Shown one piece after another: positions 17,268-31,019 of a stretch of 64,000 nucleotides of DNA. The translations under genes and the position numbers were made by a program. Each line of letters begins with the position of its first letter. The first letter of the stretch is position 1. Source of the DNA: an uncultured Alphaproteobacteria bacterium (GTDB lineage Bacteria; Pseudomonadota; Alphaproteobacteria; Rhodobacterales; Rhodobacteraceae); contig CACBAM010000001.1 of NCBI GenBank assembly GCA_902537215.1, forward strand, positions 121,100-185,099, given 5' to 3'. The notes below the pieces were generated by a model that was not told the DNA's origin, did not search any database, and worked only from the letters and a program-made list of their open reading frames with translations.

Positions 17268-17424
17268 TGGCTGGGACGGCAGGTTTCGAACCTACGGTGC
17301 ATTTGATCAAAACGCGTGGATAATGTTATGAGGAGTTATAAGGTTTCTAATAACCCTTTAAAATCATCCTTTTACTGTGATGCCTACTCTGAGTTAATAG
17401 GAGAGTTATGAAAAATGTTGTCAA
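17268..17424 (-). repeat. unit U1: strongly diverged tRNA-Gln 3'-half copy plus arm (outermost)
   Basis: TGGCTGGGACGGCAGGTTTCGAACCTACGGTGCATTTGATCAAAACGCG, followed by an arm with GTTATGAGGAGTTATAAGG ... CCCTTTAAAAT ... TGTTGTCAA. Confidence 0.75.
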
Positions 17425-17474
17425 AAAATTAACTAAAAAGAAATAAGTGTATTCATTTTTGCTTTATTACTTTA

Positions 17475-18860
17475 TTACTTTGTAATTATTGATGTTTCCA
17501 ATGCGTCGATGTAGTGAGTCCTCCAAATATTAATATTAAAAGAATGTAATTGATCAAAAGCATTGAGCCATCTCCTCAAGCGTTCCTTTTTAGGCATTTT
17601 TAGAGCATAATTCAATGCATTTGCTACTCCCTCCGGATCATGAGGGTTCACAATTAATGCGTCTGGTAATTCTTCTGCTGCGCCTGCAAATCTTGATAAA
17701 ATTAGCACTCCTGGATCACTCGCGCTCTGAGCTGCTATATATTCCTTTGCCACCAAATTCATTCCATCTCTTAGTGGTGTTACAAGTCCAATTCTGCTAT
17801 TTCTAAAAAATCCCATAAGACTTTTTTGCTGGAATCCTTTGTTGAGATACCTTATTGGCGTCCAATCAAAGTCACCATACGCACTATTTATTTTTCCAGC
17901 ACTAAGCTCTAATTTTTTTCTTATTTCTTTATATTGAAAAACAGAACCTCTTGAGGTAGGGGCTATTTGAAGCAAAGTTGTTGATCTGATGTGTTCACTA
18001 TGATTTTTTAGAAGATGGTTATACGCTGCGAATCTAAGCTCAAGTCCCTTCGAATAGTCTAGCCTATCGACGCCAATAATTAGTTTGTCCGTTTTAATAC
18101 TTTTTAGCAGTCTTTTCACCTGAGGAGAGTTATCAGTCTCTTCTGATATTCTTGTAACTTTGTTCGTATCTATAGATATTGGAAAATGTTTTACCTTAGA
18201 CTTTTTACCTAAAGCAAATATTGATCCATCTGGTTCAACTGATCCTCCTAACTCACTGATGATATAATCTAAAAAGGTAAGTACATGTTTCTTAGTTTGA
18301 AAGCCTATCAAGTCAAACTCTAAGAGTGCATCAACAAGTTCTCGATGATCAGGTAATGCAGTCAAAATTTCTTTTGATGGCCATGGTATATGTAAAAAGA
18401 AGCCTATTTTTTGTGTACATTTTAGCTTTCTCAACTCTCTAGCCATCAATAAAAAATGATAATCATGAACCCATATTAAATCTTCATTATTGAGAAGTTT
18501 TTTGATCTTTAAGGAAAATGACTCGTTAACGCTCTTATAACTCTCAAACTTTAATTTGGAATAATCTACTAAGTCCAATCTGTAGTGAAAAATAGGCCAC
18601 AGTACTTCGTTACAATATCCATTATAGTAATTTTCGTAATCTTTTTTGGTTAAATCAACAATGGCATAAGTTATTCCTTCATCCTTTTTTACATTTAGTT
18701 TGACGTCTTCATTTGTAGTAACTCTTCCACTCCAACCAAACCAAAGACCGCTTGTCTCCTGCAACGTATCATATAATGCAACTGCAAGTCCGCCAGCTGC
18801 CTCAGGTTTCTTTTCGTTGGGAAGCATGACCCTATTAGAAATAACGACTACTCTACTCAT
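17475..18860 (-). CDS. otsA: alpha,alpha-trehalose-phosphate synthase (GT20)
   Basis: VVISNRV, GGLAVAL, LWFGWSG, VHDYHFLL. 461 aa. Confidence 0.9.
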   Translation of the reverse strand: MSRVVVISNRVMLPNEKKPEAAGGLAVALYDTLQETSGLWFGWSGRVTTNEDVKLNVKKDEGITYAIVDLTKKDYENYYNGYCNEVLWPIFHYRLDLVDYSKLKFESYKSVNESFSLKIKKLLNNEDLIWVHDYHFLLMARELRKLKCTQKIGFFLHIPWPSKEILTALPDHRELVDALLEFDLIGFQTKKHVLTFLDYIISELGGSVEPDGSIFALGKKSKVKHFPISIDTNKVTRISEETDNSPQVKRLLKSIKTDKLIIGVDRLDYSKGLELRFAAYNHLLKNHSEHIRSTTLLQIAPTSRGSVFQYKEIRKKLELSAGKINSAYGDFDWTPIRYLNKGFQQKSLMGFFRNSRIGLVTPLRDGMNLVAKEYIAAQSASDPGVLILSRFAGAAEELPDALIVNPHDPEGVANALNYALKMPKKERLRRWLNAFDQLHSFNINIWRTHYIDALETSIITK

Positions 18861-18875
18861 AACTCTGCATTTTAT

Positions 18876-19703
18876 TTACCTAGATTTTAGAAGTTGCTTC
18901 ATTACTTCGTGAACGGATTTAACATTAGGTAAAAAGAAGTTGGCCTTACTTCTTTTATGATTTCCAACACGAACTGACCAGCCACCTTTCTTGTTGACAG
19001 TTTCAAAACCATCCTCATCGGTTTCATCATCACCGATAAAAATAGGTCTCCGTTTTATAAAAGGTTTAGTTCTCATAAAATATGAAATTGCTGTTCCTTT
19101 ATTGTGGCTTAGGGGTTTAACTTCCAAAACTTCCTTTCCTTTTAGTAAAGTTAAACTACGGTCACGTTTCGTGAGCTCCATTATAATTCTATCGATTTCT
19201 TTCCTGTCGATTGTTGAATTCCGAAAATGAATAGTTAAACTTGAACCCTTATTTTCAATCTCAATATTTTTTTTTCCATTAAGTAATTCTTCAATTTTAT
19301 GGGCAATTCTCTTTATGTTTCCAGTATTGGCCTGGTACTCCTTAATTCGGAGTGCATCTCTCAATTGTGCTCCGTGGTTCCCAGCAAAAGAAATTTTATT
19401 TTTGTCGAAAAGCCTATCTAGGTCATCTAAAGTTCTGCCACTTATAAGGCCTAACGCACCTTGAAGTCTATTACGGATGGTGTGCAGTTTTTTCTGCAAT
19501 CTAAAACAAGGTTTTATCAAGCTTGGACTATTCTCAATCTCATAGAGAGTGCCATCAACGTCTAGGAATAGAGCAACTTGTTGACAATCTTTCGGAAGTA
19601 AATTTACAGAGAATGGTGACGACACGTTTAAGGGTTCGTTTATTTGTTTAAAAAGGTGTAATCTATAAGCCTTATGGATACACGCAGTTGATCTAGCACT
19701 CAA
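18876..19703 (-). CDS. otsB: trehalose-6-phosphate phosphatase (HAD)
   Basis: LFLDVDGTL (HAD motif I), ISGRTLDDL, GDDETDEDGF. Lies immediately upstream of otsA. The start is uncertain (TTG). Confidence 0.8.
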   Translation of the reverse strand: MSARSTACIHKAYRLHLFKQINEPLNVSSPFSVNLLPKDCQQVALFLDVDGTLYEIENSPSLIKPCFRLQKKLHTIRNRLQGALGLISGRTLDDLDRLFDKNKISFAGNHGAQLRDALRIKEYQANTGNIKRIAHKIEELLNGKKNIEIENKGSSLTIHFRNSTIDRKEIDRIIMELTKRDRSLTLLKGKEVLEVKPLSHNKGTAISYFMRTKPFIKRRPIFIGDDETDEDGFETVNKKGGWSVRVGNHKRSKANFFLPNVKSVHEVMKQLLKSR

Positions 19704-19829: not shown

Positions 19830-19974
19830 GGTTAGCTTCTCAATTTTCAGCAATGGTACATTAGATAAAACCTGTATATTTTGTTATCAGGTCTTTTATA
19901 ACCCTTTAAAATAGTTCTTATCCTTCTCATATTTCTTATGTGTTATCGAGAAAATCACAAAAGCTATTGTCAAA
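19830..19974 (-). repeat. unit U2: nearly erased tRNA part plus well-preserved arm
   Basis: GGTACATTAGATAAAACCTG resembles GGTACACGGGATCAAAACCCG. The arm shares a 62-nt identical block with U3. Confidence 0.7.
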
Positions 19975-20060
19975 TCGACTTTTTAGTCTATCTCGATTTC
20001 TGTAACTAGAGGGTTTTGAGACATCGCCTCAGAAATAAGATTAAAAATTTCCTCTAAATA

Positions 20061-21569
20061 ATGATAAAAAAGATGGATTTAAAAATACTGTTTAAAAACG
20101 TCGCCGCATATATTGTCTTGGTGAAGAAATGTAAATTTATCGCAGCTATTTTTGCTGTTTATTTAAGTGTAGCTGAAAACAATCTTGCAGCTAATGCGCA
20201 GTTTTTTCAAAACATTACCGATAAAATAGAAAATAACGTACCGAGATTATCTTATGGCGTGGCCGTAACAGATTTTAACGATGATGGAAAAATGGAGTTT
20301 ATAGTTACAGGGTTTCGGTATCCTAATCTCGCACTGAGCTATGAGAATGGTTCATATACAAATATTAATTCTAGTAGACTATTTGCTGATGAAAAAAGGG
20401 CATCGATTGGAGTTGTTGCTTGTGATGTAGATCAGGATGGATATGAAGAAATTTATTTCTTGAATACCGACACTTATAGTGGAACGAAAAAATATTCAGA
20501 TCGTCTAATAGATGCGGACGAAACGATTTACGATATTTTCAGTTTTAAAAAAAATCAGGCAAACTTGAATCTTACGGCCGGTAGGTCGGTGGCTTGCGTT
20601 GATAGACATGGCAACGGTAACTATGGAATTTATGTCTCCAACTATGGGGGTCCAACAAGATTTTACGAGCTGAAAAGCGATATTATCCAAGATATCGCAC
20701 CTTCGCTTGGAATAAATGCTACGACCGGTGGTCGTGCTGTAGTAGCAGGGCATATTCTATCAGGAAAAGTCGATATTTTTGCTGCGAATGAACGGGGACC
20801 TAACTTTTTACTGATGAACAAGGGCGGCACATACACTGACAAAGCTTTGGAGTACGGTATCGATGATACTCTCCAAAATGGGAGAGGAACGGCTCTATCA
20901 GATATTGGTTATAATGGGAGCTTAGACCTTATTACAGGAAATTGGAATGGTTTTCATAGAATATACACTCATGCAAACAACACCTTCGTCGATACAGCGT
21001 CTTTAAATTTTAGACAACCTTCTAAAATAAGAACGGTTATATCCGCTGATTTTGATAACGATGGTTTTGATGAGATATTTTTGAACAATATCGGTCAACC
21101 AAATAAATTATTTAGAGTTCTAGATAACAATAAACTCGAACAGTTGGAATTGACGAATGCTCTAGAAAAGAAAGGTCTGGGCACTGGTGGAGCAGTAGCC
21201 GATTTAAACGGTGACGGAATTTTGGAGCTACTGATCGCTCATGGTGAAAGTGCTCCTGAACCATTAAGCCTTTTTTCAGCTAACGTTAAGGACGATTTTC
21301 AATATTTAAGAATAGAACCTAGAAACTCTTACGATGCACCAGCAAGAGGTGCTACCGTAACACTTAAGACAAATTTCAGAACCCATGCTAAAACTATAGA
21401 TGCAGGCTCTGGCTATTTATGCCAGATGGAACCAGTAGCTCATTTTGGAATCCGTAAAAATGAAGAGATTGAGTACATTCAGATAAATTGGACTGACGGT
21501 CAAAAATCAAAATACAAAATTGAAAAGCTGAACCATCAATATGTTTTCAACCAAGGTAAAACAAATTGA
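20061..21569 (+). CDS. secreted FG-GAP/VCBS repeat protein with ASPIC/UnbV-like C-terminus (CRTAC1 family)
   Basis: Repeated D.D.DG motifs (TDFNDDGKME, CDVDQDGYEE, ADFDNDGFDE, ADLNGDGILE). C-terminal GATVTLKT...DAGSGYLCQMEPVAHFGI. N-terminal signal or anchor. Confidence 0.75.
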   Translation: MIKKMDLKILFKNVAAYIVLVKKCKFIAAIFAVYLSVAENNLAANAQFFQNITDKIENNVPRLSYGVAVTDFNDDGKMEFIVTGFRYPNLALSYENGSYTNINSSRLFADEKRASIGVVACDVDQDGYEEIYFLNTDTYSGTKKYSDRLIDADETIYDIFSFKKNQANLNLTAGRSVACVDRHGNGNYGIYVSNYGGPTRFYELKSDIIQDIAPSLGINATTGGRAVVAGHILSGKVDIFAANERGPNFLLMNKGGTYTDKALEYGIDDTLQNGRGTALSDIGYNGSLDLITGNWNGFHRIYTHANNTFVDTASLNFRQPSKIRTVISADFDNDGFDEIFLNNIGQPNKLFRVLDNNKLEQLELTNALEKKGLGTGGAVADLNGDGILELLIAHGESAPEPLSLFSANVKDDFQYLRIEPRNSYDAPARGATVTLKTNFRTHAKTIDAGSGYLCQMEPVAHFGIRKNEEIEYIQINWTDGQKSKYKIEKLNHQYVFNQGKTN

Positions 21570-21570
21570 T

Positions 21571-22278
21571 ATGACCAGGTATATTTCCACACTTTTTGTC
21601 ATGTGCTTAATAATCCCCCCAATAAGCTTAGGAGAGTCTCGAAGTTCTGATAGTTTAAAATTGACACGTTATTATGAAGAGTTACGAGCAGATTGGGGGA
21701 AAATATTTCCGAACAAAAACAGAAATGCTGGCGGTGCTCTATTTTTTAAATATATTTTAGATAATTCAAATTCTAGAGATGAGTTTTTTGAGAAGAATAA
21801 GATGTATTGTAGTGTCTCTGGGTCACTTGTACGGCCAGGTTCTCAACCTGAATTTGTTTCTGTCAGAGGCCACGATGAAGAATTAATTTGCGGCTCGCTT
21901 TACAGATGTTGTTGGCCCTGCTCTTGTGATGTGATGAAATTTGTTCAGGTGCAGGCCCTCGAAAAAACATTTGATGATAAGACGGAATTAATCAACGTAT
22001 TAACAATCAAAAACCCATGTGAAAAACCAGATTTTCCTGAAGAGGTCGATAGAGAGTCCATTTGTGTGGGCACCTCACTAAATAAAAAACGAGTGACTGA
22101 AATAAATGGAAGGCTTGTAGTTGGAGTGCTATTCGAAAGCAAAATCTGTTCACCTAAGGACATTGAAAAGATAAATAGAGAAGTTATAACAGGAAGCTAC
22201 TGTCCACTTAGAAATAATACACCACTCAAAGAGGTCAGGGGAGGTATGGGGGACATTTTCATAAAAATGGCTAATTAG
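21571..22278 (+). CDS. secreted Cys-rich hypothetical protein (weak YHS-like segment)
   Basis: Signal peptide MTRYISTLFVMCLIIPPISLG. YCSVSGSLV...CGSLYRCCWPCSCDV. ATG lies 1 nt after the upstream stop. Confidence 0.45.
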   Translation: MTRYISTLFVMCLIIPPISLGESRSSDSLKLTRYYEELRADWGKIFPNKNRNAGGALFFKYILDNSNSRDEFFEKNKMYCSVSGSLVRPGSQPEFVSVRGHDEELICGSLYRCCWPCSCDVMKFVQVQALEKTFDDKTELINVLTIKNPCEKPDFPEEVDRESICVGTSLNKKRVTEINGRLVVGVLFESKICSPKDIEKINREVITGSYCPLRNNTPLKEVRGGMGDIFIKMAN

Positions 22279-22336
22279 ATTTTTATTTGATTTTGCTTTG
22301 AAAATTGATCACTTACCGTGCATGTTTAGCAATAAT

Positions 22337-22494
22337 TGGCTGGACTGATAGGATAGCAACCTACGGTACACGGGATCAAAACCCGTAGATATTGTTATCA
22401 GAAGTTATCAGGTTTCCTATGACCCTTTAAAATAGTTCTTATCCTTCTCATATTTCTTATGTGTTATCGAGAAAATCACAAAAACTGTTGTCAA
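22337..22494 (-). repeat. unit U3: tRNA-Gln 3'-half copy (6 mismatches) plus arm
   Basis: TGGCTGGACTGATAGGATAGCAACCTACGGTACACGGGATCAAAACCCG followed by the arm. Confidence 0.85.
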
Positions 22495-22577: not shown

Positions 22578-23003
22578 ATGAAACATGAGAAAATTACATC
22601 AGAAAATGTAACGGAAAAATACGAGTATATTTTTGCAGATTGGGTAAAAGAATTAAACATTGAGTTTTGTGAGGTTCGAGAGCGTTATGTGAAAGCAAAG
22701 TTTAAAAATAAAGCTAAGTTTAGATTTTTTTCCGGAGCAGTTTGCGGTCAAGTTTTAATGGCTGTAGTAGATACGGTAATGTCAGTGACGATGGGAACAA
22801 CCGAAACTGCTGTTAGAGGTACATTATCTCAAAATAATAATTTTGTTAAACCTGCTACAGCAGATTTTTTTTATGTGGAGTGCTCTCTACAAAAAACTGG
22901 AAAATCTATAGCAATTGGAGAAACAAAAATATTTTCAGGCGACAACAAAGACTTGATCTGTCACTCTACCTCAATTTATCCAGTTAATAGTTTAAAAACA
23001 TAA
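22578..23003 (+). CDS. hotdog-fold (PaaI-like) thioesterase family protein
   Basis: 141 aa. The pattern G.V.GQVLMAVVDTVMS fits PaaI/DUF4442-type hotdog proteins. Confidence 0.5.
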   Translation: MKHEKITSENVTEKYEYIFADWVKELNIEFCEVRERYVKAKFKNKAKFRFFSGAVCGQVLMAVVDTVMSVTMGTTETAVRGTLSQNNNFVKPATADFFYVECSLQKTGKSIAIGETKIFSGDNKDLICHSTSIYPVNSLKT

Positions 23004-23034
23004 TGAATTTCTTTAAAAGCACCTAGTAGATAAT

Positions 23035-23185
23035 GTCGCAGGTTTCAAACCTACGGCACACGGAATCAAAAACCCCAAAATAATATTAAGAGGAGTTATT
23101 AGTTTTCTCACGATCTTCTAACATTGTTCTCATCCTTTTCATGCTCCTATTTAGTTATCAGGAAAATCATGAAAACTGTTATCAA
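23035..23185 (-). repeat. unit U4: diverged tRNA-Gln 3'-half copy plus arm
   Basis: GTCGCAGGTTTCAAACCTACGGCACACGGAATCAAAAACCCC, then an arm ending GTTATCAGGAAAATCATGAAAACTGTTATCAA. It overlaps the stop codon of the 23182 gene. Confidence 0.75.
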
Positions 23186-24000
23186 ATTTTCTCAGCGGTA
23201 ACTATTCGGTAAGGAAAAGGCATATTAACAATTCCGTCAATCTCGAACTCTTTAAATCTCTCAATAAGCTTTGACTCAATGCTAGGTATCTTTTTGGGAT
23301 CTTGAGAGTCTAACAAGCCTTTAGATCTTACCGCAACTTCTCTGTACATTTGTGGAATTGAATTTGCAGGCACTCCCAAATTAAAGACATTATTTACAGC
23401 TTCGAAATTTGTCATTACAAGACCTTGAGAAGAAAGCCGTTCTGATGCTCGGTGCTGATCACTAAAATCATCGATGGGAGGTGCTGTTGGCAATCCTACA
23501 TCATAGCTTCCTAACTCACCTATTGTTTCAGCAAGCGTTCCAAAAAACGGAGATTCTTGGACTGGGGCCCAAACAGTGAATACAAAACGTCCATTTTGTT
23601 TCAATACGCGTCTCACTTCTTTTATCGCTCTGTCGGGGTGAGCAAAATGTAACATTCCAAAAGTGCATAAAATTTTTGTAAAGCTACTGTCTCCATACTG
23701 AAGGTTTTCAGCATCAGCTTGTTCAAAATTGAGATTTGGATTTTGCTTTCGTGCCTCAAGCACCATAGCTTCAGCAAAATCAGTACCCACTACATTTTGT
23801 GTTATTTTTGCTATTTCATTTGTTCCATAACCTGGTCCAGATGCAAGCTCCAATACAATATCATCTCTTGAAAGGGTCAAAGCATTTACTGCTTTCGGTA
23901 TGATATTCTTGGCATTTGCACTAGCCCATTTATCATAGGTAGATGCCCTCTCTTCCCAACCATTCTTTTCAAAGTTTTTGAAATCTTCAAATTCAGTCAT
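23182..24000 (-). CDS. class I SAM-dependent methyltransferase
   Basis: VLELASGPGYGTNEIA (motif I) with the Methyltransf_11-like layout. 272 aa. Confidence 0.8.
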   Translation of the reverse strand: MTEFEDFKNFEKNGWEERASTYDKWASANAKNIIPKAVNALTLSRDDIVLELASGPGYGTNEIAKITQNVVGTDFAEAMVLEARKQNPNLNFEQADAENLQYGDSSFTKILCTFGMLHFAHPDRAIKEVRRVLKQNGRFVFTVWAPVQESPFFGTLAETIGELGSYDVGLPTAPPIDDFSDQHRASERLSSQGLVMTNFEAVNNVFNLGVPANSIPQMYREVAVRSKGLLDSQDPKKIPSIESKLIERFKEFEIDGIVNMPFPYRIVTAEKI

Positions 24001-24180
24001 TTTTATTCAACGGCTTTTTAATGCTTTTACGTTTTTTGATTAGCGAAGCAGACTATGTCAAAATAACACTTCAAAAGGCAGAGTCAAAAAAAAATGTTTA
24101 TCTAGTATGCCTAAAAGATTCTTGTCAAAAGGTCCAAAGATATCAACCATAAAATTATTGGGTTTGAGCAATTTAGAAAA

Positions 24181-24350
24181 TGGCTGGGGTGGTAGGATTC
24201 GAACCTACGGTACACGGGATCAAAACCCGTGGATATTGTTATCAGGAGTTATCAAAATTCGCATAACCCTTTAAAATAGTTCTTATCCTTCTCATGCTTC
24301 TTATGCGTTATCAGGAAAATCACGAAAACTGTTGTCAAAAGTGTTGTCAA
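24181..24350 (-). repeat. unit U5: perfect 49-nt tRNA-Gln 3' copy plus 121-nt arm
   Basis: 24181..24229 is identical to 30945..30993. The arm carries GTTATCAGG, GTTATCAAA, GTTATCAGG, GTTGTCAA and GTTGTCAA. Confidence 0.9.
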
Positions 24351-24494
24351 CAACTAGCATTTCCGTAATAGTTTCTAAAGTGAACTAAATCAAGGAACAG
24401 TCGATGGCGTTCTTAAATTTATTTTCTATAGATATAAACTACCTGATCTTGTTTCGCTGGTCAGGCATGCTCTCGATTATACAGATTGTCGCCC

Positions 24495-25856
24495 ATGAGT
24501 AAGTCAAGTGACATTGCTGACCTATTTGACCATCTGGAATTAAACGATGCTTTCCTTGCCGCGCAATACCCTGCTGATATCGAGGATTTTTGTAAAGTTT
24601 ATCCAGAAAAAGTTATTGGGTTAGCCCTAGTTGGCCCAAATGAAACAAATAGCTCAGCTTTTGAAATTATTGCTGAAAGAATATTGATGATAAATAGTGA
24701 GCATGGACCTACCAAGACGGCAGCAAATGATTTTAAAAAGGATTTAAAAAAGGCAAGTACCTATGAAATAAAAAACTATGAAATACTTCCGTGGTCAGAT
24801 ATTTCCATAGATCACCCCAAACAATTATTCGAAAGTCTTTCGAACTTTTTTGGATCTATGGGTCAAAAAAAAAATGCATTTGCAAAATCCAAAGTGGGCG
24901 GAAAATTCAAAGACACTTACTTTTCAATTGAAGGATGTGGACCTCCTCTAATTCTTTTCCCATTCACTCTGTCGGCAGCACAATGGAAACCTATAATACC
25001 ATTACTGGCAGAAAAATTTACAGTAATCACTTTAAGTGGGCCTAATTTAGGTTTTATTCCAGTTTTGGAAAGTCGTGCAGCGCTACCAACTTATCAAACT
25101 ATGATTTCATCATTGGTATCAATAATGAATATTACACCAAATGGAAAAATTTTAGAATTGGGTTGTGGGACTGGTGCTCTATGTCGTCAAGTTTTAAACT
25201 TAAGACCAGACCTTTCTGTGACCGGGGTTGATATAAATACCTACTTGTTGAATGGAGCTATCCAAATCGCTGAAAATGAAGATTTGTATGTTAATAATTA
25301 TATTGATGAGAAAGAATTTACAGTGAAGAATTTTTCTGAAGCTGGTGAATTAAACTTCGCTTACAGTGACGCCATCGATATACCCTTTCCTGATAACTTT
25401 TTTGATGCTGTTTATTCTGTAACTGTCTTGGAGGAATGTGATGCAGATAAAGCAATAAAAGAAATAGTGAGGGTAGTCAAACCAGGAGGACCTATAGGAA
25501 TAATTGTAAGAGCTATTGATATGCCCCAGTGGTTTAACTTCGATATAACTGGCGAATTAGAGCATAAGTTAAATATTCCCCTTCAATTAAAAAGTACTTA
25601 TGGCATTGCTGATAAATCACTTTATGACCAGATGCGCAAAAACGGACTTCATGAATCGATTAACTTTCCAAGCATGGTAGCTGTGCCCAGAGGCAAAAAC
25701 AAAAATTTATTTGAGTGGTTTCTGAGACGTACGCGACAAACTTTGAATGAAGATGAGAAAATTGAACTGGATGATGAGCTGAAAAAAATTTCTGATAAAT
25801 CTAACCTGATATACTCTATGCCATTTCACTGCTCAGTAGGTTGGAAGCAATATTAA
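24495..25856 (+). CDS. two-domain protein: degenerate alpha/beta-hydrolase-like N-domain plus class I SAM methyltransferase domain
   Basis: ILELGCGTGALCRQVL and VVKPGGPIG methyltransferase motifs. The N-terminal half has GCGPPLILFPF...FTVITLSGPNLG. The start is either ATG 24495 or TTG 24486. Confidence 0.65.
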   Translation: MSKSSDIADLFDHLELNDAFLAAQYPADIEDFCKVYPEKVIGLALVGPNETNSSAFEIIAERILMINSEHGPTKTAANDFKKDLKKASTYEIKNYEILPWSDISIDHPKQLFESLSNFFGSMGQKKNAFAKSKVGGKFKDTYFSIEGCGPPLILFPFTLSAAQWKPIIPLLAEKFTVITLSGPNLGFIPVLESRAALPTYQTMISSLVSIMNITPNGKILELGCGTGALCRQVLNLRPDLSVTGVDINTYLLNGAIQIAENEDLYVNNYIDEKEFTVKNFSEAGELNFAYSDAIDIPFPDNFFDAVYSVTVLEECDADKAIKEIVRVVKPGGPIGIIVRAIDMPQWFNFDITGELEHKLNIPLQLKSTYGIADKSLYDQMRKNGLHESINFPSMVAVPRGKNKNLFEWFLRRTRQTLNEDEKIELDDELKKISDKSNLIYSMPFHCSVGWKQY

Positions 25857-25909: not shown

Positions 25910-25940
25910 TGGCTGGGGTGGTGGGACTAGAACCTAAGGC
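25910..25940 (-). repeat. unit U6: truncated tRNA-Gln 3'-end remnant (no arm)
   Basis: TGGCTGGGGTGGTGGGACTAGAACCTAAGG matches the acceptor and T-arm part only. Confidence 0.7.
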
Positions 25941-25962: not shown

Positions 25963-27699
25963 TTATTTTTCAAAGAATGGTTTATATTCCCAATGAGTTT
26001 CAAAGAGATCTGGATCAGAGTAACCCTCAAAATTTTGAAATGAATAACCTGTTGGGCCTGTATAGTAAATAGTCCACTCTTTAAGCCATGCGTTCAACGG
26101 AGAAATCTTTTTAAACTGAAGTCCTCCCATGTTTAGAAAAATCCAGCCACCATGTTTATCCTGCGTAGGAGTATCGCAGTACATATCCATCAAACCATCG
26201 TTATTAACATCAATTAACTTGGTGCTACCGCAATATGAATTCCATCTATTACTTTCAGACTTAATATCTTTCTTCCAGGCTTTTACAGAAGTCCAGCTCT
26301 TTTTTCCTGAAATCATTGGAATTTGATCTGCGATGGTAAATTTACCCTCCCCATTATTAGACCAAATAGTGTGAGTTCCTCCAGCGTAAAGTGGGCCTAC
26401 GGTGGTTCCCGCTATATCTAGATCCCCATCTCCATCAAAGTCCCATGATACTAGATCTACGATGTGTGATAGTAAATATCCCGATCCATAAATGTCATAC
26501 GCTGGTGGAATTTTTTTCCAACCTGTTTTAAAACTTCCTTTACCATCCCCAAACAGAACTACGGTATTATTGTGTTTCTTACTACTATTATGTGAATACA
26601 ATTTTTTTTCAAACCAACCTCCACTAGCTATTAAATCAACTATTCCATCACCGTTGTAATCACCGCTCGTCACGGCAAAAGCAAATTGGTCAGCACACTG
26701 TTTTACAGTAAAGTTCCCAGCACCATCATTAAAATGGCAATATATCTTGCCCCCGCCTTTTGTATTTTCCCATTTAATATGGGGAGTTACCACATCTAAG
26801 TCCCCATCATGATCAATATCATTCACCGTAACGCCATGTGAAAAACCTTGGTATAGCCCTGTTTTTTCATCTACGAAAGCTCCCTTTTCCTTCACATGCT
26901 TCCAACCTTTGTCATTAGAAATGAAAACTATATCTGCTCCCCCATGATAAAACTTTCCTTTGTAAGTGTGGCCAAAAGCACTTGGGCAAAATACGTCATC
27001 TATTCCGTCATTGTTAAAATCGGCTAGTACCGGTCTCTGACAATTTCTACCCATAGAGGTATTATGCTCAAAAGCATTGATAACGGTTTCGTCTCGTTCA
27101 TTAATACTTACTGAAAATGCAGTAAAATTTAAGTAACGGTCATTACCACTTTTTAGTTCGCACAACGGGACACCTATAGATGTGAGGGTATAGCCATTAG
27201 GACAAACTTCCATCTCATAAGACATGAGTAAATCTTGGCGACCGTCATTATTCAAATTTCCGAATGCCATATGATTTATGTAGAATACCTCTCTATTTTC
27301 AGATGCATTTTTTCTTTGAAATAGATCAGAGGGTAAAAAATATGGTGAGTTTGAGTCCGGTATTATTTTCGATTGATTTGAAATAAAGTTTCCAAAAAAG
27401 TGTACCTTTAATTTATTTTTCGTTTCCTCAATTTTTGGAATTCCTAAACTTATCACTGAAGTTTTTAACTCTATCAATTCATTATCGTCAATGGTTCCAT
27501 CGAACACTTTGTTATTGTCGGCATAATATTTATTTAATGCCTTTATTGTATTTTTTCCTTTTATCCCGTCTTCTGTTCCGGCTGCATAACCTAATTGATT
27601 GAGCATATATTGGCTACCTCGAACGTATGAATTAGAGTTCGCTGCCATGCTTTGAAAAAATATAAATAAGGCTATTACTAAAGTCTTGATAATTTTCAT
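25963..27699 (-). CDS. secreted peptidoglycan-binding-domain plus FG-GAP/VCBS repeat protein
   Basis: Signal peptide. PG_binding_1-like LNQLGYAAGTEDGIKGKNTIKAL. Repeats ADFNNDGIDD, NDIDHDGDLD, GDYNGDGIVD, WDFDGDGDLD, IDVNNDGLMD. Confidence 0.7.
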   Translation of the reverse strand: MKIIKTLVIALFIFFQSMAANSNSYVRGSQYMLNQLGYAAGTEDGIKGKNTIKALNKYYADNNKVFDGTIDDNELIELKTSVISLGIPKIEETKNKLKVHFFGNFISNQSKIIPDSNSPYFLPSDLFQRKNASENREVFYINHMAFGNLNNDGRQDLLMSYEMEVCPNGYTLTSIGVPLCELKSGNDRYLNFTAFSVSINERDETVINAFEHNTSMGRNCQRPVLADFNNDGIDDVFCPSAFGHTYKGKFYHGGADIVFISNDKGWKHVKEKGAFVDEKTGLYQGFSHGVTVNDIDHDGDLDVVTPHIKWENTKGGGKIYCHFNDGAGNFTVKQCADQFAFAVTSGDYNGDGIVDLIASGGWFEKKLYSHNSSKKHNNTVVLFGDGKGSFKTGWKKIPPAYDIYGSGYLLSHIVDLVSWDFDGDGDLDIAGTTVGPLYAGGTHTIWSNNGEGKFTIADQIPMISGKKSWTSVKAWKKDIKSESNRWNSYCGSTKLIDVNNDGLMDMYCDTPTQDKHGGWIFLNMGGLQFKKISPLNAWLKEWTIYYTGPTGYSFQNFEGYSDPDLFETHWEYKPFFEK

Positions 27700-27803: not shown

Positions 27804-27974
27804 TGGCTGGGGTGGTAGGATTCGAACCTACGGTACACGGGATCAAAACCCGTGGATATTGTTATCAGGAGTTATCAGGATTCTCATAAGACCTTTAAAA
27901 TAGTTCTTATGCTTCTCGTGCTTCTGATGCGTTATCAGGAAAATCACGAAAAGTGTTGTCAAAATTGTTGTCAA
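27804..27974 (-). repeat. unit U7: perfect 49-nt tRNA-Gln 3' copy plus 122-nt arm
   Basis: 27804..27852 is identical to 30945..30993. GTTATCA occurs at 27861, 27871 and 27931; GTTGTCA at 27955 and 27967. Confidence 0.9.
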
Positions 27975-27979
27975 TATTC

Positions 27980-29374
27980 CTATTTTTTTCTGACGTTACG
28001 CCTGGAATTTTGTTTGCTTCTTTTCTTTTTTTTTCGATCATTTTTCATTTGAACAAGTTGTTCTTCGCCAAGACTTTCTACCTCCTCTATAGGAGGTAGT
28101 TTTCCTTTGAAATTTTCAATTAGCGCTAAGGCCAAATTTTCATTAGAGAACCGAGTTAATAGCTCATTAGCAAACTTAAGTTCACTAGAACTATTTTTTT
28201 TGTTTCTTGAAAGGTAGTTTATGATCTTTTCATTATCTTTATGTTCTATTTCTTCTTGTGAAAGAAATTTATTAATAACCGGTCTTACCTTTGCAGAATT
28301 GATCAATTTTTCATATTTTCTTTTCTCGCCAGGTGAACAAAAAAGAATACTTCGACCCTTGTTCCCAGCTCTCCCGGTTCGCCCACTTCTGTGTATTAAG
28401 GTTTCTGGATTATAAGGGAGTTCAGCATGTATAACTATATCCAGGTTAACCAGGTCAATACCTCTTGCTGCTACGTCTGTCGCAACACATATCTTACACC
28501 TACCATTTTTTATGGATTGTAATGCCTTGAACCTCTCTGATTGATTTAATGCACCAGATAAGGAGACAACAGAAAAACCTCTATTTAATATTCTAGAAGA
28601 GATATGCGTTACAGCATTCCTAGTAGAGCAAAAAATAATAATAGTCTTATCATCATGAAATCGGAGAAAGTTGAATATTGCATTTTCAATATCATGTTTT
28701 TTTACTAAATATGTTTCATAAGAAATATCAGTGTGGGCTTTGCCAAGACTAGTAGCTTCAATTCTGACTGCGTTTTTTTGGTACTTTGATGCTAATGACA
28801 ATATTTTTTTTGGGAGAGTTGCCGAAAACATAAGTACCCTCTTATTTGCGGGACTTTGATTTACAATCATATCTAAGTCTTGTTTAAAGCCTAAATCAAG
28901 CATTTCATCAGCTTCATCAAGGACAAGCGATCTTAAATAATTTAAGTGGAAAGTTTTCCGACGTATATGGTCATTAATCCTTCCTGGTGTTCCTATTAAA
29001 AGATTAACTCCTTTAGAAATATTTTTTCTTTCTTTTTTTATATCCATCCCACCGATCGCTGTTGAGATTCTGATTTCAGTTTTAGAAAACAGCCATTCTA
29101 ACTCATTAAAAACCTGTAAAGCTAATTCTCGTGTGGGGGTAACGACTAGGGTTTTAAGTTTGTTATCTGAATCCAGAATTTCTTTAAGTCCAGCAACCGA
29201 TATTGACAACCCATAAGCAAGTGTTTTGCCAGAGCCTGTTTGGGAGCTCACCAGAAGATCTTTATCATTGTTACCAGGATCAAGCACTAAGCTTTGAACT
29301 GTTGTTAGTTTGTCATACCCTTTTTCTTTTATTGAGAATTGTAATTCTTCAGGAATAGATTTTGTTTCAAGCAT
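27980..29374 (-). CDS. DEAD-box ATP-dependent RNA helicase
   Basis: SQTGSGKT (motif I), DEAD, SAT, HRSGRTGRAG. Lys/Arg-rich C-terminal tail. Confidence 0.9.
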   Translation of the reverse strand: MLETKSIPEELQFSIKEKGYDKLTTVQSLVLDPGNNDKDLLVSSQTGSGKTLAYGLSISVAGLKEILDSDNKLKTLVVTPTRELALQVFNELEWLFSKTEIRISTAIGGMDIKKERKNISKGVNLLIGTPGRINDHIRRKTFHLNYLRSLVLDEADEMLDLGFKQDLDMIVNQSPANKRVLMFSATLPKKILSLASKYQKNAVRIEATSLGKAHTDISYETYLVKKHDIENAIFNFLRFHDDKTIIIFCSTRNAVTHISSRILNRGFSVVSLSGALNQSERFKALQSIKNGRCKICVATDVAARGIDLVNLDIVIHAELPYNPETLIHRSGRTGRAGNKGRSILFCSPGEKRKYEKLINSAKVRPVINKFLSQEEIEHKDNEKIINYLSRNKKNSSSELKFANELLTRFSNENLALALIENFKGKLPPIEEVESLGEEQLVQMKNDRKKKKRSKQNSRRNVRKK

Positions 29375-29432
29375 TCGCTCAATCTATAGAATAATAAAAA
29401 TAAAGATATAGTTAAGATTTTTAAATTTCGTC

Positions 29433-30185
29433 TCATCTAATCTTTTGATCAAAAGAAAGATTGCCACCTGCCCAAATTGGTAAATTCTCTTTATCATTGA
29501 GCCATTTTTCTTCATCAGGGGTATTAGCTCTTCCAAACTCTGAATTTCTTTGCGGGTAACGCCCAAATTTTTCCAAAACCTGCTTATGTTGGTCTACCGC
29601 CTTCTTATTTCTCCCTTCAAATAGAGTGAAATTAGGATAAGCACCAATTGCCATGTCAATTATTTCGCATGCACGAACAAGGTCGACTATTTCTTCTGAA
29701 TGAGCCAAAGCCCAGGGAAGTAAATATAGTAGTGCTGGAGGCAATTTTAAAGTTTGTTGGACTTTCTCTTTACTAACTAGGTCTCGAACGAGCTCGCGTC
29801 CTATGTAGTCATACGAAAAAGCTTCAGCCGTCCCTCGAAAACATGAGCGAGATAGTTGGTCTGCTAGCAATACTCTAGCAACCTGGCCTTCAAGGGTAAA
29901 CCATTCATCTTCAATTAGGGTTTGTGGATCAGCTTTCAATTCGCGAATAACAGATGAAAATGGCTTGCAAATATCGTCTAAAGCGGTTCCACTCCTAAAC
30001 CATATGCCTAATAGTGGTTCCACTGTTTCATCGTAAAAAAGGCTTTTTCTATCATTAGCATTATTAATATCGCAGCCACACATATAATTCAAAACACTAC
30101 TTGGAGAACGAGGATTAGTAAGAGCTTTCAGGACTGCGGGTTTTCTACTAAATTGCTCAGGGGTAAGATCGTCTGGTAACATCAT
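29433..30185 (-). CDS. DUF924 family protein
   Basis: LADQLSRSCFRG and FGRYPQRNSEFGRANTPDEEKWL are typical of DUF924. Confidence 0.7.
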   Translation of the reverse strand: MMLPDDLTPEQFSRKPAVLKALTNPRSPSSVLNYMCGCDINNANDRKSLFYDETVEPLLGIWFRSGTALDDICKPFSSVIRELKADPQTLIEDEWFTLEGQVARVLLADQLSRSCFRGTAEAFSYDYIGRELVRDLVSKEKVQQTLKLPPALLYLLPWALAHSEEIVDLVRACEIIDMAIGAYPNFTLFEGRNKKAVDQHKQVLEKFGRYPQRNSEFGRANTPDEEKWLNDKENLPIWAGGNLSFDQKIR

Positions 30186-30374
30186 TTAAAAAAGAAGCAA
30201 AGAATGATTTGGTTGGGGAAAGTTTCAATGATCGTAAAATATTAGAGAAAACAATTGAAGAGATATGTAGGAAAAAGGGGTGGAGTTTTAGGTCGTAAAA
30301 ATGTTCAAATTTTTTTCAACCACAGAGTTGAAAGCGTTGTAAAAATCTATGGAGTGGCATTTGCAAAAATTGGT

Positions 30375-30829: not shown

Positions 30830-30849
30830 TGTTGTCAAAGTGTTGTCAA
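30830..30849 (-). repeat. orphan arm terminus (TGTTGTCAAAGTGTTGTCAA) without a tRNA part
   Basis: Matches the distal end of the U5 and U7 arms. Lies 95 nt from the 3' end of the intact tRNA-Gln. Confidence 0.6.
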
Positions 30850-30944
30850 AAACGGATTATTCTTCAAACTATAGATTTTGATCCGGTAGATAGCTAATCA
30901 GTAATATCCAAGAAAACATAGTATACTTTAGCTAATTTTAGGAG

Positions 30945-31019
30945 TGGCTGGGGTGGTAGGATTCGAACCTACGGTACACGGGATCAAAACCCGCTGCCTT
31001 ACCGCTTGGCTACACCCCA
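30945..31019 (-). tRNA. tRNA-Gln (anticodon UUG)
   Basis: The 75-nt reverse complement folds as a cloverleaf. Acceptor TGGGGTG/CACCCCA has U1:A72, typical of bacterial tRNA-Gln. Other elements: D-arm GCC/GGC, anticodon arm GCGGG-TTTTGAT-CCCGT, T-arm GTAGG-TTCGAAT-CCTAC, discriminator G and encoded CCA. Confidence 0.9.

Follow-up and report, generated by a model that had tools for sequence, protein, structure and literature searches.

A 62-nt identity between neighboring att-type scars of a tRNA-Gln(UUG) island probably reflects gene conversion

Two neighboring noncoding repeats, U2 and U3, in a genomic island from an uncultured lineage of marine Alphaproteobacteria share a perfectly identical block of 62 nt. 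Our analysis indicates that both repeats are attR-type scars of an additive tRNA-Gln(UUG) island and that the identity probably arose separately and later, by non-crossover gene conversion. The tract would be short, would connect scars 2.5 kb apart, and would be restricted to the lineage of this genome. The block is best explained as something other than a trace left when cassette B, the segment that the two scars enclose, was inserted or excised.

Results

The island lies within a window of 64,000 nt, the whole stretch of DNA analyzed here, where seven scars (U1–U7) downstream of a tRNA-Gln(UUG) gene divide cassettes that hold cargo only (Table 1). A full scar joins the final 49 nt of the tRNA to an arm of ≈125 nt that contains three copies of GTTATCAGG and one or two of TGTTGTCAA. 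The tRNA part runs to and includes the anticodon stem-loop, which forms the core inverted repeat (CACGGG-ATCAAAA-CCCGTG) and has its loop at unit positions 39–45, and the last bases of the tRNA part are the 5' strand of the anticodon stem. The edges of the module are sharp and adjoin more than 35 different cargos; the left edge coincides with the 3' end of the tRNA, and the right edge directly follows the second TGTTGTCAA. Direct tRNA 3' copies, 49 nt long or decayed, start at 17268, 22337, 23027, 24181, and 27804; further copies inside the island are one of ≈27 to 31 nt at 25910 and an eroded one in U2. As the earlier note had seen, the tRNA-derived part of U2 is nearly erased (57% identity to the 49-nt tRNA segment), and its arm has one GTTATCAGG copy deleted and a single TGTTGTCAA-like copy left. 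Among related loci (numbered with the prefix L), L041 carries a full unit at the U6 position, and the DEAD-box cassette is preceded by U7-like units in L004, L009, L014, L019, and L020. The array ends at the tRNA and at kdsA, and its cargo genes sit on either strand.

Table 1. Scars, cassettes, and tRNA anchor of the island, by position in the window
Feature	Position	Strand	Remarks
U1, decayed scar	17268..17432	-	tRNA fragment 82%, arm 74% to consensus; leftmost, adjoins speD, before otsA/otsB cassette
Cassette A cargo	17475..19703	-	otsA 17475-18860, otsB 18876-19703; Pfam Glyco_transf_20, Trehalose_PPase
U2, scar before cassette B	19830..19974	-	tRNA part and core inverted repeat eroded
62-nt block, copy 1	19901..19962	.	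within U2 arm
Cassette B cargo	20061..22278	+	two genes
Cassette B gene 1, FG-GAP/UnbV_ASPIC protein, 502 aa	20061-21569	+	Pfam
Cassette B gene 2, Cys-rich 245-aa protein	21541-22278	+	Pfam: no match
U3, scar between cassette B and thioesterase cassette	22337..22494	-	tRNA fragment 88%, core intact, arm 87% to consensus
62-nt block, copy 2	22422..22483	.	within U3 arm
Cassette C cargo, 4HBT thioesterase	22578..23003	+	Pfam
U4, decayed scar	23027..23186	-	before 272-aa methyltransferase cassette
272-aa methyltransferase gene	23182-24000	-	cassette after U4
U5, near-consensus scar	24181..24352	-	tRNA fragment 49/49, arm 97%; before 456-aa methyltransferase cassette
456-aa methyltransferase cassette	24486-25856		cassette after U5
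U6, ≈27-31-nt tRNA 3' fragment without arm	25910..25940	-	before FG-GAP 578-aa gene
FG-GAP 578-aa gene	25963-27699	-	cassette after U6
U7, near-consensus scar	27804..27975	-	tRNA fragment 49/49, arm 94%; before DEAD-box helicase cassette
DEAD-box helicase cassette	27980-29374	-	after U7
DUF924 mini-cassette	29431..30191	-	identical end points in six other loci
Orphan TGTTGTCAAAGTGTTGTCAA, arm-end remnant	30832..30852	.	92 nt from tRNA 3' end
Intact tRNA-Gln(UUG)	30945..31019	-	island anchor, attB/attL side; ARAGORN; Rfam tRNA 67.8 bits

For comparison, we assembled 76 units from 46 related loci in marine single-cell genomes, metagenome-assembled genomes (MAGs), and metagenome contigs, sampling more than 35 cargo types and about 15 uncultured genomes. 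Matches to a 19-mer of the block numbered 53 in metagenomes, 28 of them chance matches without a unit, and loci of the same contig were left unjoined where their sequences did not overlap. All 76 units radiate, star-like, from a single master sequence as one family, with graded decay: more than half reach 90% identity or more to the consensus, the more diverged arms tend to go with the more decayed tRNA fragments (rho = 0.68, p = 1e-11), and the motifs TTGTTA.CAG, GAAAAT, and TTGTCAA are invariant even among decayed units. Within the window, decay increases with distance from the tRNA: U5 and U7, both intact, are close to it, and the decayed U1, U2, and U4 are remote. A division into at least two arm subfamilies, as previously suggested, is too simple for a family with one consensus and a continuum of decay. 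The reported likeness of U5 and U7 needs adjusting in its figures: they are identical over 74 nt from TGGCTGG, not over their first 76 nt, and overall at 162 of 173 positions (94%; 91% in the arm), against the ≈90% given before.

The block itself is real. It occurs exactly twice, both times on the + strand, and is absent from all sequence shuffles. Outside it, U2 and U3 agree in 52 of 108 columns of a global alignment, and in the family alignment their arms are identical at 93 of 121 positions (0.77). When mismatch positions were randomized in 200,000 trials, no run of at least 62 appeared (P < 5e-6), and among 56 within-genome unit pairs this is the longest identical arm run, the runner-up measuring 44. 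The private variants GTTATCGAG and CATATTTCTTATGTG that had been ascribed to U2 and U3 are present in both; their counterparts are CATGCTTCTTATGCG plus GTTATCAGG in U5 and CGTGCTTCTGATGCG plus GTTATCAGG in U7. The block with its private variants is found in no other unit among the 76, those beside cassette B included (both sides in L004, L008, L017, and L035; the right side only in L053 and L014), and the units before and after cassette B in L004, L008, L035, and L017 share no tract with each other.

Orthology of the flanking sequence identifies the kind of event. The orthologs of U2 are the units preceding cassette B (pre-B units) in L004, L008, L035, and L017. To the left of the block, U2 matches its pre-B counterparts elsewhere at 86% identity, and to the right it has the same TTTTAGTCT cargo junction as they do; the flanks of U3 outside the block stay orthologous to the units that follow cassette B elsewhere (post-B units). 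Because U2 is pre-B-like on both sides and U3 post-B-like, we read the block as a patch and not as the product of a crossover. The tract is longer than the divergence of the arms predicts, its flanks keep their own orthology, and it is lineage-specific, traits expected of gene conversion. Short-tract conversion between dispersed bacterial repeats is well known, for example in rRNA operons, tuf, and IS copies. Like those cases, the block is a perfect patch in diverged sequence, between repeats in the same orientation a few kb apart, with flanks not exchanged; set against them it shows nothing unusual, being a short 62-nt tract in noncoding integration scars. The data favor local gene conversion unrelated to cassette boundaries, the outcome that the earlier note had set against its own model.

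The donor is ambiguous, as the informative sites conflict. Two block sites (A at CATA and G at ATCG) common to the pre-B arms of L004 and L008 favor U2, whereas the U2 block has about 3 lineage-specific changes versus about 12 in L004, favoring a consensus-like donor. The block is 79% identical to its L004 ortholog and the flanking intergenic DNA 80 to 86%, so that an excess of divergence is not clear.

Genes of cassette B are present in seven other genomes, both of them in L004, L008, L017, L035, and L053 and partially in L006 and L014, next to two different left and seven different right neighbors; other arrays lack the cassette. According to 13 comparisons of a locus with the window, together with cassette maps, gain, loss, and reordering of cassettes between genomes fall exactly on the borders set by the units, in agreement with the earlier proposal. 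The order otsAB-U2-B, with the same eroded U2, is kept in L004, L008, and L035 at 88 to 92% identity, and hence cassette B had settled long before the block identity arose. Since the core of U2, the anticodon stem-loop inverted repeat, is destroyed, cassette B cannot now excise there by core recombination. The units flanking a cassette are not systematically more alike, a point on which the earlier note had asked for a check: mean arm identity is 0.775 for adjacent pairs versus 0.804 for unrelated pairs. The arm is linked to the right-hand cargo to a modest degree (0.864 versus 0.817 versus 0.804), and when unit positions are taken singly, their association with the cargo on either side gives a weak signal, so that no single crossover point can be mapped. 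In units that share one flank, the breakpoint site is variable: about 172 in units after the QOR gene, between 79 and 118 for L004 versus L008, and at the left end for U7 of the window versus L020. With breakpoints at no fixed position, a good part of present-day exchange may be homologous and not core-specific.

No tyrosine recombinase was detected in the 64-kb window or in the 46 unit-bearing loci (phmmer and hmmsearch; Pfam on cassette ORFs), and the same search, as its positive control, picked up the integrase of the unit-free locus L039. A regex and by-eye search of the cargo ORFs for an integrase likewise returned none. Among IMG/VR phage contigs, the arm-end sequence TGTTGTCAAAANTGTTGTCAA turns up in 10 groups unrelated to one another, and in six of them it lies 0 to 238 nt from a Pfam-confirmed tyrosine integrase gene, which speaks for an integrase origin of the arm; in L081 (7819-9048) and L113 (7479-8585), for example, a phage integrase gene adjoins TGTTGTCAA repeats. 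Viral-contig scans with the block 19-mer, with the pattern of the tRNA/arm junction, and with a 32-nt piece from the 3' part of tRNA-Gln each gave 0 matches and yielded no phage or satellite with the attP of the units; TGTTATCAGGAGTTATCA had two isolated matches in viral contigs otherwise without similarity to units. A literature search for the TGTTGTCAA motif with an integrase returned nothing relevant. We also considered a dif/XerCD-like site in the arm, by eye, and rejected it, as a partial TTCGCATAA was seen in U5 only and is not conserved across units.

Discussion

The scars can be accounted for, partly by direct observation and partly by inference, as descendants of one master arm whose cargo was left behind. 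All arms would derive from a single master sequence, putatively the P arm belonging to a family of tyrosine-integrase elements specific for tRNA-Gln, a family that is absent from the locus and would act in trans or only transiently. Each event would leave cargo and one scar, and the scars would then decay; with one scar per event, internal cassettes come to be bracketed by similar arms. The site-specific step is one that we infer, since neither an integrase nor a circular intermediate was seen. Where inserts accumulate in tandem at a single tRNA, two attR-type scars, each with P arm and core, flank all of them other than the one nearest the tRNA. The premise that similar arms on both sides of an insert call for a special model was therefore mistaken, as tandem scars of the same family give that arrangement anyway.

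It is possible, though to our minds doubtful, that the units are live one-armed attP/attR sites (core and P arm alone) and that the cassettes, each a minimal integrative element comprising cargo and one unit of ≈175 nt, are moved by a tyrosine integrase whose gene is elsewhere or on a transient helper. If so, the integrase would excise, reshuffle, and reinsert cassettes at tRNA-Gln or at resident units. Streamlined marine Alphaproteobacteria of one lineage would in that case possess cassettes organized much as in integrons but based on a tRNA and a double-strand att site, and the tandem TGTTGTCAA repeat would be an arm-type recognition element in wide use within one clade of integrases, a clade also present in unrelated phages.

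A less likely account dispenses with any current site-specific system and treats the units as portable homology through which relatives trade cassettes, after DNA uptake, by RecA-dependent double crossovers in the units on either side, with homogenization by the same machinery producing the block. The variable breakpoints, the weak linkage of units to either flank, the lack of an integrase in all 46 unit-bearing loci, and the 80 to 99% identity of units across about 175 nt all suit it. However, it leaves unexplained the base-precise ends of the units (the 3' terminus of the tRNA on one side, TGTTGTCAA on the other) on more than 35 unrelated cargos, the match of fresh units to one master with an intact 49-nt tRNA segment, and the integrase-associated repeat in the arm. 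RecA-type exchange can be how the array is maintained, as distinct from how it originated, and as such is compatible with gene conversion as the source of the block.

The model put forward in the earlier note, a circle of cargo plus one unit, is plausible for the array as a whole, and because a unit comprises one core and one arm, such a circle is coherent as a mobile form; the 62-nt block does not serve as evidence for it. Applied to the block, the model would have a circle of cassette B and one unit recombine inside a resident arm, giving two hybrid units with the block as their shared region of exchange. This we consider improbable. Cassettes do shift relative to each other, their order is permuted among genomes, and mosaic breakpoints do fall within the arm, as in L008_4992, which is post-B-like over 1–79 and pre-f30-like from 118 to its end; the block occupies that same part of the arm. 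Yet a crossover should swap flanks, and U2 is pre-B-like on either side of the block, whereas U3 to its left is post-B-like, with a GTAGATATT variant common to the post-B units of L004 and L008. Cassette B, moreover, was long in place, with otsAB-U2-B kept in L004, L008, and L035; other pairs flanking it lack a shared tract, and adjacent units are no more alike than other pairs. The accompanying comparison with attC sites fails as well, as single-stranded DNA folds of the U3 and U5 arms do not outperform those of shuffled sequence (z +1.3 to −0.5). The minus strand of U7 alone folds at z −5, with a structure not common to the other arms.

An artifact of assembly or polishing, in which repeats were collapsed or corrected toward a consensus, is very improbable. 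The relatives of the window are single-cell and metagenome assemblies, the assembly is probably from an uncultured organism, and the repeat length is near k-mer size. Nevertheless, unit-specific sequence bounds the block on both sides, the private variants differ from the family consensus, the contig spans seven such repeats in an order orthologous in L004, L008, and L035, and collapsed repeats usually break contigs and seldom make patches. Selection for a protein-binding site is hardly credible: the arms do hold conserved repeats, but the interior of the block (reference positions 97–132) is among their more variable parts, at about 0.80 pairwise identity, and the U2/U3 variants are in no other unit.

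Gene conversion between scars thus remains our preferred reading of the block, and the locus around it is an additive tRNA island of a known kind, tycheposon-like or CIME-like. It has an intact tRNA at one end and tRNA 3' repeats inside, and its content differs between relatives, with breaks at the repeats. Additive islands marked by tRNA repeats are known from Alteromonas (PMC4898812) and from 'Ca. Methylopumilus', in whose fGI-2 the last 20 bp of tRNA-Lys are repeated (PMC10872708). Common to them and to our locus are the tRNA hotspot, the cassettes marked by direct tRNA 3' repeats and variable in number and order among close relatives, and a cargo that is metabolic or of unknown function. 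Here, in contrast, the 49-nt tRNA repeat is joined to a conserved arm of ≈125 nt, an integrase was detected in none of 46 loci, and the host belongs to an uncultured lineage of marine Alphaproteobacteria.

For Prochlorococcus, the accessible part of a preprint by Hackl et al. (bioRxiv 10.1101/2020.12.28.424599) describes partial tRNAs between island segments and proposes that transient integrase elements left the cargo behind. As far as that part goes, the tycheposon islands resemble ours in the streamlined marine host, the abutting tRNA, the partial tRNAs between elements or remnants, and the large share of DNA without element genes; here, too, insertion at the 3' part of a tRNA left partial copies. 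In contrast to tycheposons as presented there, the cassette ORFs of our array contain no tyrosine recombinase, excisionase, or replication module by Pfam, an integrase HMM, and inspection. The same part does not show tRNA-Gln among the described targets and makes no mention of arms beside the partial tRNAs, a feature of our locus.

In the array itself, a core inverted repeat is combined with arm repeats and an integrase-associated arm-end repeat, and no recombinase was found, as in CIMEs. CIMEs and the site-specific accretion of ICESt1/ICESt3-type elements in streptococci were reportedly treated by Pavlovic in 2004 and by Bellanger in 2011. Like CIMEs, the cassettes are att-flanked tandem segments at one site without recombination genes of their own and could in principle be mobilized in trans; unlike CIMEs, which are few per site and ICE-derived, they are small, number up to 8 or more per array, and have no conjugation context. 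CIMEs and accretion of this type are reviewed in PMC5704250.

As a conversion patch, the 62-nt block would be ordinary and adds little. The island, by comparison, is a clean and well-sampled case in which a streamlined marine bacterium keeps its flexible genes as cassettes without integrases behind a single tRNA and reshuffles them; the long scar beside each cassette preserves the putative arm of the responsible integrase. With their core, GTTATCAGG repeats, and TGTTGTCAA repeats, the scars offer a sequence handle for finding the responsible element. They also permit tests of the Prochlorococcus model of transient elements leaving cargo behind, and allow one to gauge how much site-specific and how much homologous recombination contributes to turnover of the island.

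The arrays recall the sedentary chromosomal integrons with Vibrio VCRs in their long, promoter-less, cargo-only organization, their lineage-homogeneous repeats of ≈120 to 175 nt, and their strain-variable content. They differ from integrons in that the 64 kb contain no IntI or attI and the repeat is tRNA-derived and lacks an attC hairpin; an anticodon stem-loop of a tRNA serves as core, as is usual for the double-strand att sites of phage-type integrases. A role of the arms as promoters or terminators was rejected, the array scan being no different from shuffles and cargo genes lying on both strands; the sole recurrent "terminator" that the scan returned was the anticodon stem-loop core.

A tRNA-Gln island of exchangeable cassettes

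The units U1–U7 are repeat scars that divide cargo-only cassettes lying between speD and a tRNA-Gln(UUG) gene, which together with one distant tRNA-Arg makes up the whole tRNA complement of the window. Read on the plus strand, a unit opens with the 3'-terminal 49 nt of tRNA-Gln in reverse complement, and the tRNA fragments terminate precisely within the 5' strand of the anticodon stem. What is here called the core is the anticodon stem-loop, which in the units forms a perfect inverted repeat of 6-7-6 layout (CACGGG-ATCAAAA-CCCGTG). An arm of about 125 nt follows the tRNA fragment, with three copies of GTTATCAGG and then one or two of a terminal TGTTGTCAA. The shared module has limits that are sharp to the base: on its left the tRNA 3' end, on its right the second TGTTGTCAA. 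A unit has the layout of an attR-type junction of tRNA-targeting tyrosine integrases (anticodon-loop sublocation; Williams 2002), its parts being a P arm, the core and then former tRNA-downstream DNA.

Features of the tRNA-Gln island in the window
Feature	Position	Strand	Description
U1 tRNA fragment	17268-17316
Block, copy in U2	19901-19962		62 nt
Cassette B, second gene	21541-22278		245-aa Cys-rich protein
Block, copy in U3	22422-22483		62 nt
TTTAAGAAG-like motif	24171-24180; 30935-30944		examples, the 10 nt directly left of TGGCTGG
TGTTGTCAAAANTGTTGTCAA	24332-24352; 27956-27976; 30832-30852		tandem repeat, cargo-side arm end
U6	25910-25940		~27-31-nt tRNA fragment only
U7 arm	27853-27975	minus
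Orphan arm end TGTTGTCAAAGTGTTGTCAA	30832-30852
tRNA-Gln(UUG)	30945-31019	minus
Cassette			otsA/otsB
Cassette B			FG-GAP/UnbV protein + Cys-rich 245-aa protein
Cassette			thioesterase
Cassettes (two)			methyltransferase
Cassette			FG-GAP protein
Cassette			DEAD-box helicase
Cassette			DUF924
Cassette			114-aa ORF

A degenerate pattern over the tRNA/arm junction recovered 21 loci from species-representative genomes, all of them marine SAGs or MAGs labelled uncultured Alphaproteobacteria, Rickettsiales or Rhodobacterales. An arm 19-mer added 25 unit-bearing metagenome contigs (28 further matches were by chance), bringing the non-redundant full-length units to 76 in total. In BLAST comparisons against the window and in ORF maps, the presence, absence and reordering of cassettes coincide exactly with unit boundaries, which bears out the general claim of the earlier note that mobile cassettes are bounded by units. 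Cassette B is joined straight to the DEAD cassette in locus L004, otsAB and B are both missing from L020 and L016, the DEAD cassette adjoins the tRNA in L019, and the 761-bp DUF924 module has identical end points in six loci. The smallest cassettes measure 0.7 kb and the largest 7 kb or more. Cassette B itself is present in L004, L008, L017, L035 and L053 and partial in L006 and L014; its left neighbor is otsAB or f41-f42, and its right neighbors are seven different ones. Cassette order is also permuted: relative to the 272-aa methyltransferase, B is distal in the window and proximal in L017, and MBL stands before DEAD in L009 and L020 but after it in L014. Arrays like these cannot be the outcome of differential loss alone and require independent insertion or translocation.

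The locus belongs to an already known type, the additive tRNA island, and is tycheposon-like or CIME-like. Its counterparts are the additive tRNA islands described in Alteromonas (PMC4898812) and Methylopumilus (PMC10872708), and it also agrees with the picture that Hackl et al. proposed for Prochlorococcus islands (bioRxiv 10.1101/2020.12.28.424599), where partial tRNAs lie between segments and most island DNA is left by transient integrase elements.

The 62-nt block shared by U2 and U3

According to the earlier note, the arms of U2 and U3, which stand before and after cassette B, share 62 nt without mismatch as well as private variants, and the tRNA-derived part of U2 is nearly erased. These descriptions are accurate, the U2 tRNA part being eroded to 57% identity. 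The 62-mer has exactly two copies in the whole window, one within each unit, and no match in shuffled sequence. It is the longest identical arm run among the 56 within-genome unit pairs collected (runner-up, 44); a run of at least 62 arose in 0 of 200,000 permutations with randomly placed mismatches, and no other collected unit contains a variant of it (31-mer, at most three mismatches). Beyond the block U2 and U3 are poorly alike, with 52 of 108 columns identical in a pairwise global alignment; over the arms, identity is 93/121 (0.77). The high likeness reported for U5 and U7 also stands, with adjusted figures: 74 rather than 76 identical initial nucleotides, and 94% rather than about 90% overall.

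Like arms on both sides of B had been thought to call for a special model, a mobile circle of cargo plus one unit. In a tandem array, however, every internal insert lies between two same-family attR-type scars, so arm similarity is expected. Nor are units flanking one cassette more alike than others, their mean arm identity being 0.775 (n = 34) versus 0.804 for unrelated pairs; by shared cargo, the means are 0.864 (right-hand) and 0.817 (left-hand). No tract common to the units before and after B was found in L004, L008, L035 or L017. On either side of the block, U2 is orthologous to the pre-B units of other genomes, with which it has in common the eroded tRNA part, the lack of one GTTATCAGG copy and the TTTTAGTCT cargo junction. 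U3 retains post-B characters, including a GTAGATATT variant also present in L004 and L008. With flanks of these two kinds, the block is a patch and not a crossover. The otsAB-U2-B layout is conserved in L004, L008 and L035 at 88-92% identity, which places B there long before 62-nt stretches could stay or become identical; and because the core of U2 is destroyed, B cannot currently leave via core recombination at that unit.

Judging from these sequence comparisons, the block is best read as a short non-crossover gene conversion between neighboring scars in this lineage. Local gene conversion, which the earlier note had itself listed as the contrary explanation, is thus favored over the circle for which the block had been cited. 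Two block sites common to the L004 and L008 pre-B arms favor U2 as donor, and the number of lineage-specific changes in the block, about 3 in U2 versus about 12 in L004, favors a consensus-like donor. At 79% identity to its L004 ortholog, the block is not clearly more diverged than nearby intergenic DNA (80-86%). Present-day reshuffling of cassettes may be site-specific or homologous. Breakpoints between units with one common flank vary (~172, between 79 and 118, or the left end), and unit sequence is only weakly linked to either flank; from this it is clear that units do undergo homologous exchange and conversion with one another, and the block would be one instance.

One master arm and its decay

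The scars are of the tRNA-anticodon-loop type with one master arm, and the units are mosaic. More than half of the 76 units have at least 90% identity to one consensus and an intact 49-nt tRNA segment, and arm divergence from the consensus tracks tRNA-fragment decay (Spearman 0.68, p = 1e-11). Within the window, the decayed U1, U2 and U4 occupy the tRNA-distal part of the array, the intact U5 and U7 its tRNA-proximal part. On these grounds the proposed arm subfamilies are better named age classes of one family, as would be expected if most insertions took place at the tRNA and each left a fresh scar.

About 9 of the 49 positions in the U1 tRNA fragment depart from the resident tRNA-Gln, yet its T stem can still pair; the fragment may have come from another tRNA-Gln allele, that of a foreign donor, and not from decay alone. 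Some boundaries are armless and consist of a 27-31-nt tRNA 3' fragment (T arm and acceptor end): U6, L005:1647-1676, L006, L016:4982-5012 and L021. Such fragments stand before an FG-GAP 578-aa gene and the DUF924 module, and L041 carries a full unit at the U6 position. Either they make up a second class of integration, of T-loop type, or they are units that were truncated.

The arm motif and a putative integrase

A tRNA-Gln-specific tyrosine integrase, acting in trans or from transient elements, would make the cassettes. The TGTTGTCAAAANTGTTGTCAA repeat also occurs in 42 IMG/VR contigs (L077-L118) from 10 unrelated phage groups of 25-60% GC, and in six of the 10 groups a Pfam-confirmed tyrosine integrase gene lies 0-238 nt from it. 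This proximity speaks for the arm being that of an integrase, and TGTTGTCAAAANTGTTGTCAA has the look of an arm-type motif associated with integrases and widely shared; a literature search found no mention of it. None of the viral contigs scanned carries the attP of these units, and no recombinase was found in the array or the entire 64 kb. The search that detected an integrase in the unit-less L039 found none in the window or any unit-bearing locus. In one reading, a trans-driven cassette system with one-armed att sites, the array resembles an integron, which we consider rather unlikely; tried as attC-like sites, the arms were rejected because they fold unlike attC. A promoter/terminator scan of the array likewise rejected the arms as promoters or terminators. 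Folded alone as single-stranded DNA, the minus strand of the U7 arm is unusually stable (z = -5.0); because U5 and U3 lack this property, it is probably idiosyncratic.

Directly past the tRNA 3' end, many unrelated cassettes have a weak TTTAAGAAG-like motif as their right end (39 independent left flanks were compared across the loci), so attP/attB identity may reach into the tRNA trailer by about 10 nt. The orphan TGTTGTCAAAGTGTTGTCAA lies 92 nt from the intact tRNA 3' end with the rest of its unit missing, and the homologous 114-aa cassette in L019 terminates inside the same repeat; together these suggest that most of a unit was lost by deletion.

Cargo

The second protein of cassette B has a hydrophobic N-terminal segment and zero Pfam matches. 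Its gene is always inherited together with that of the FG-GAP/UnbV protein, and L035 and L053 show 94-95% amino-acid identity. Elsewhere, some cassettes carry very large flagellin-like or repeat proteins of 782-1030 aa (metagenome loci L038:778-3870 and L042:130-2478), and L052 and L030 have multi-gene transporter operons as cargo.
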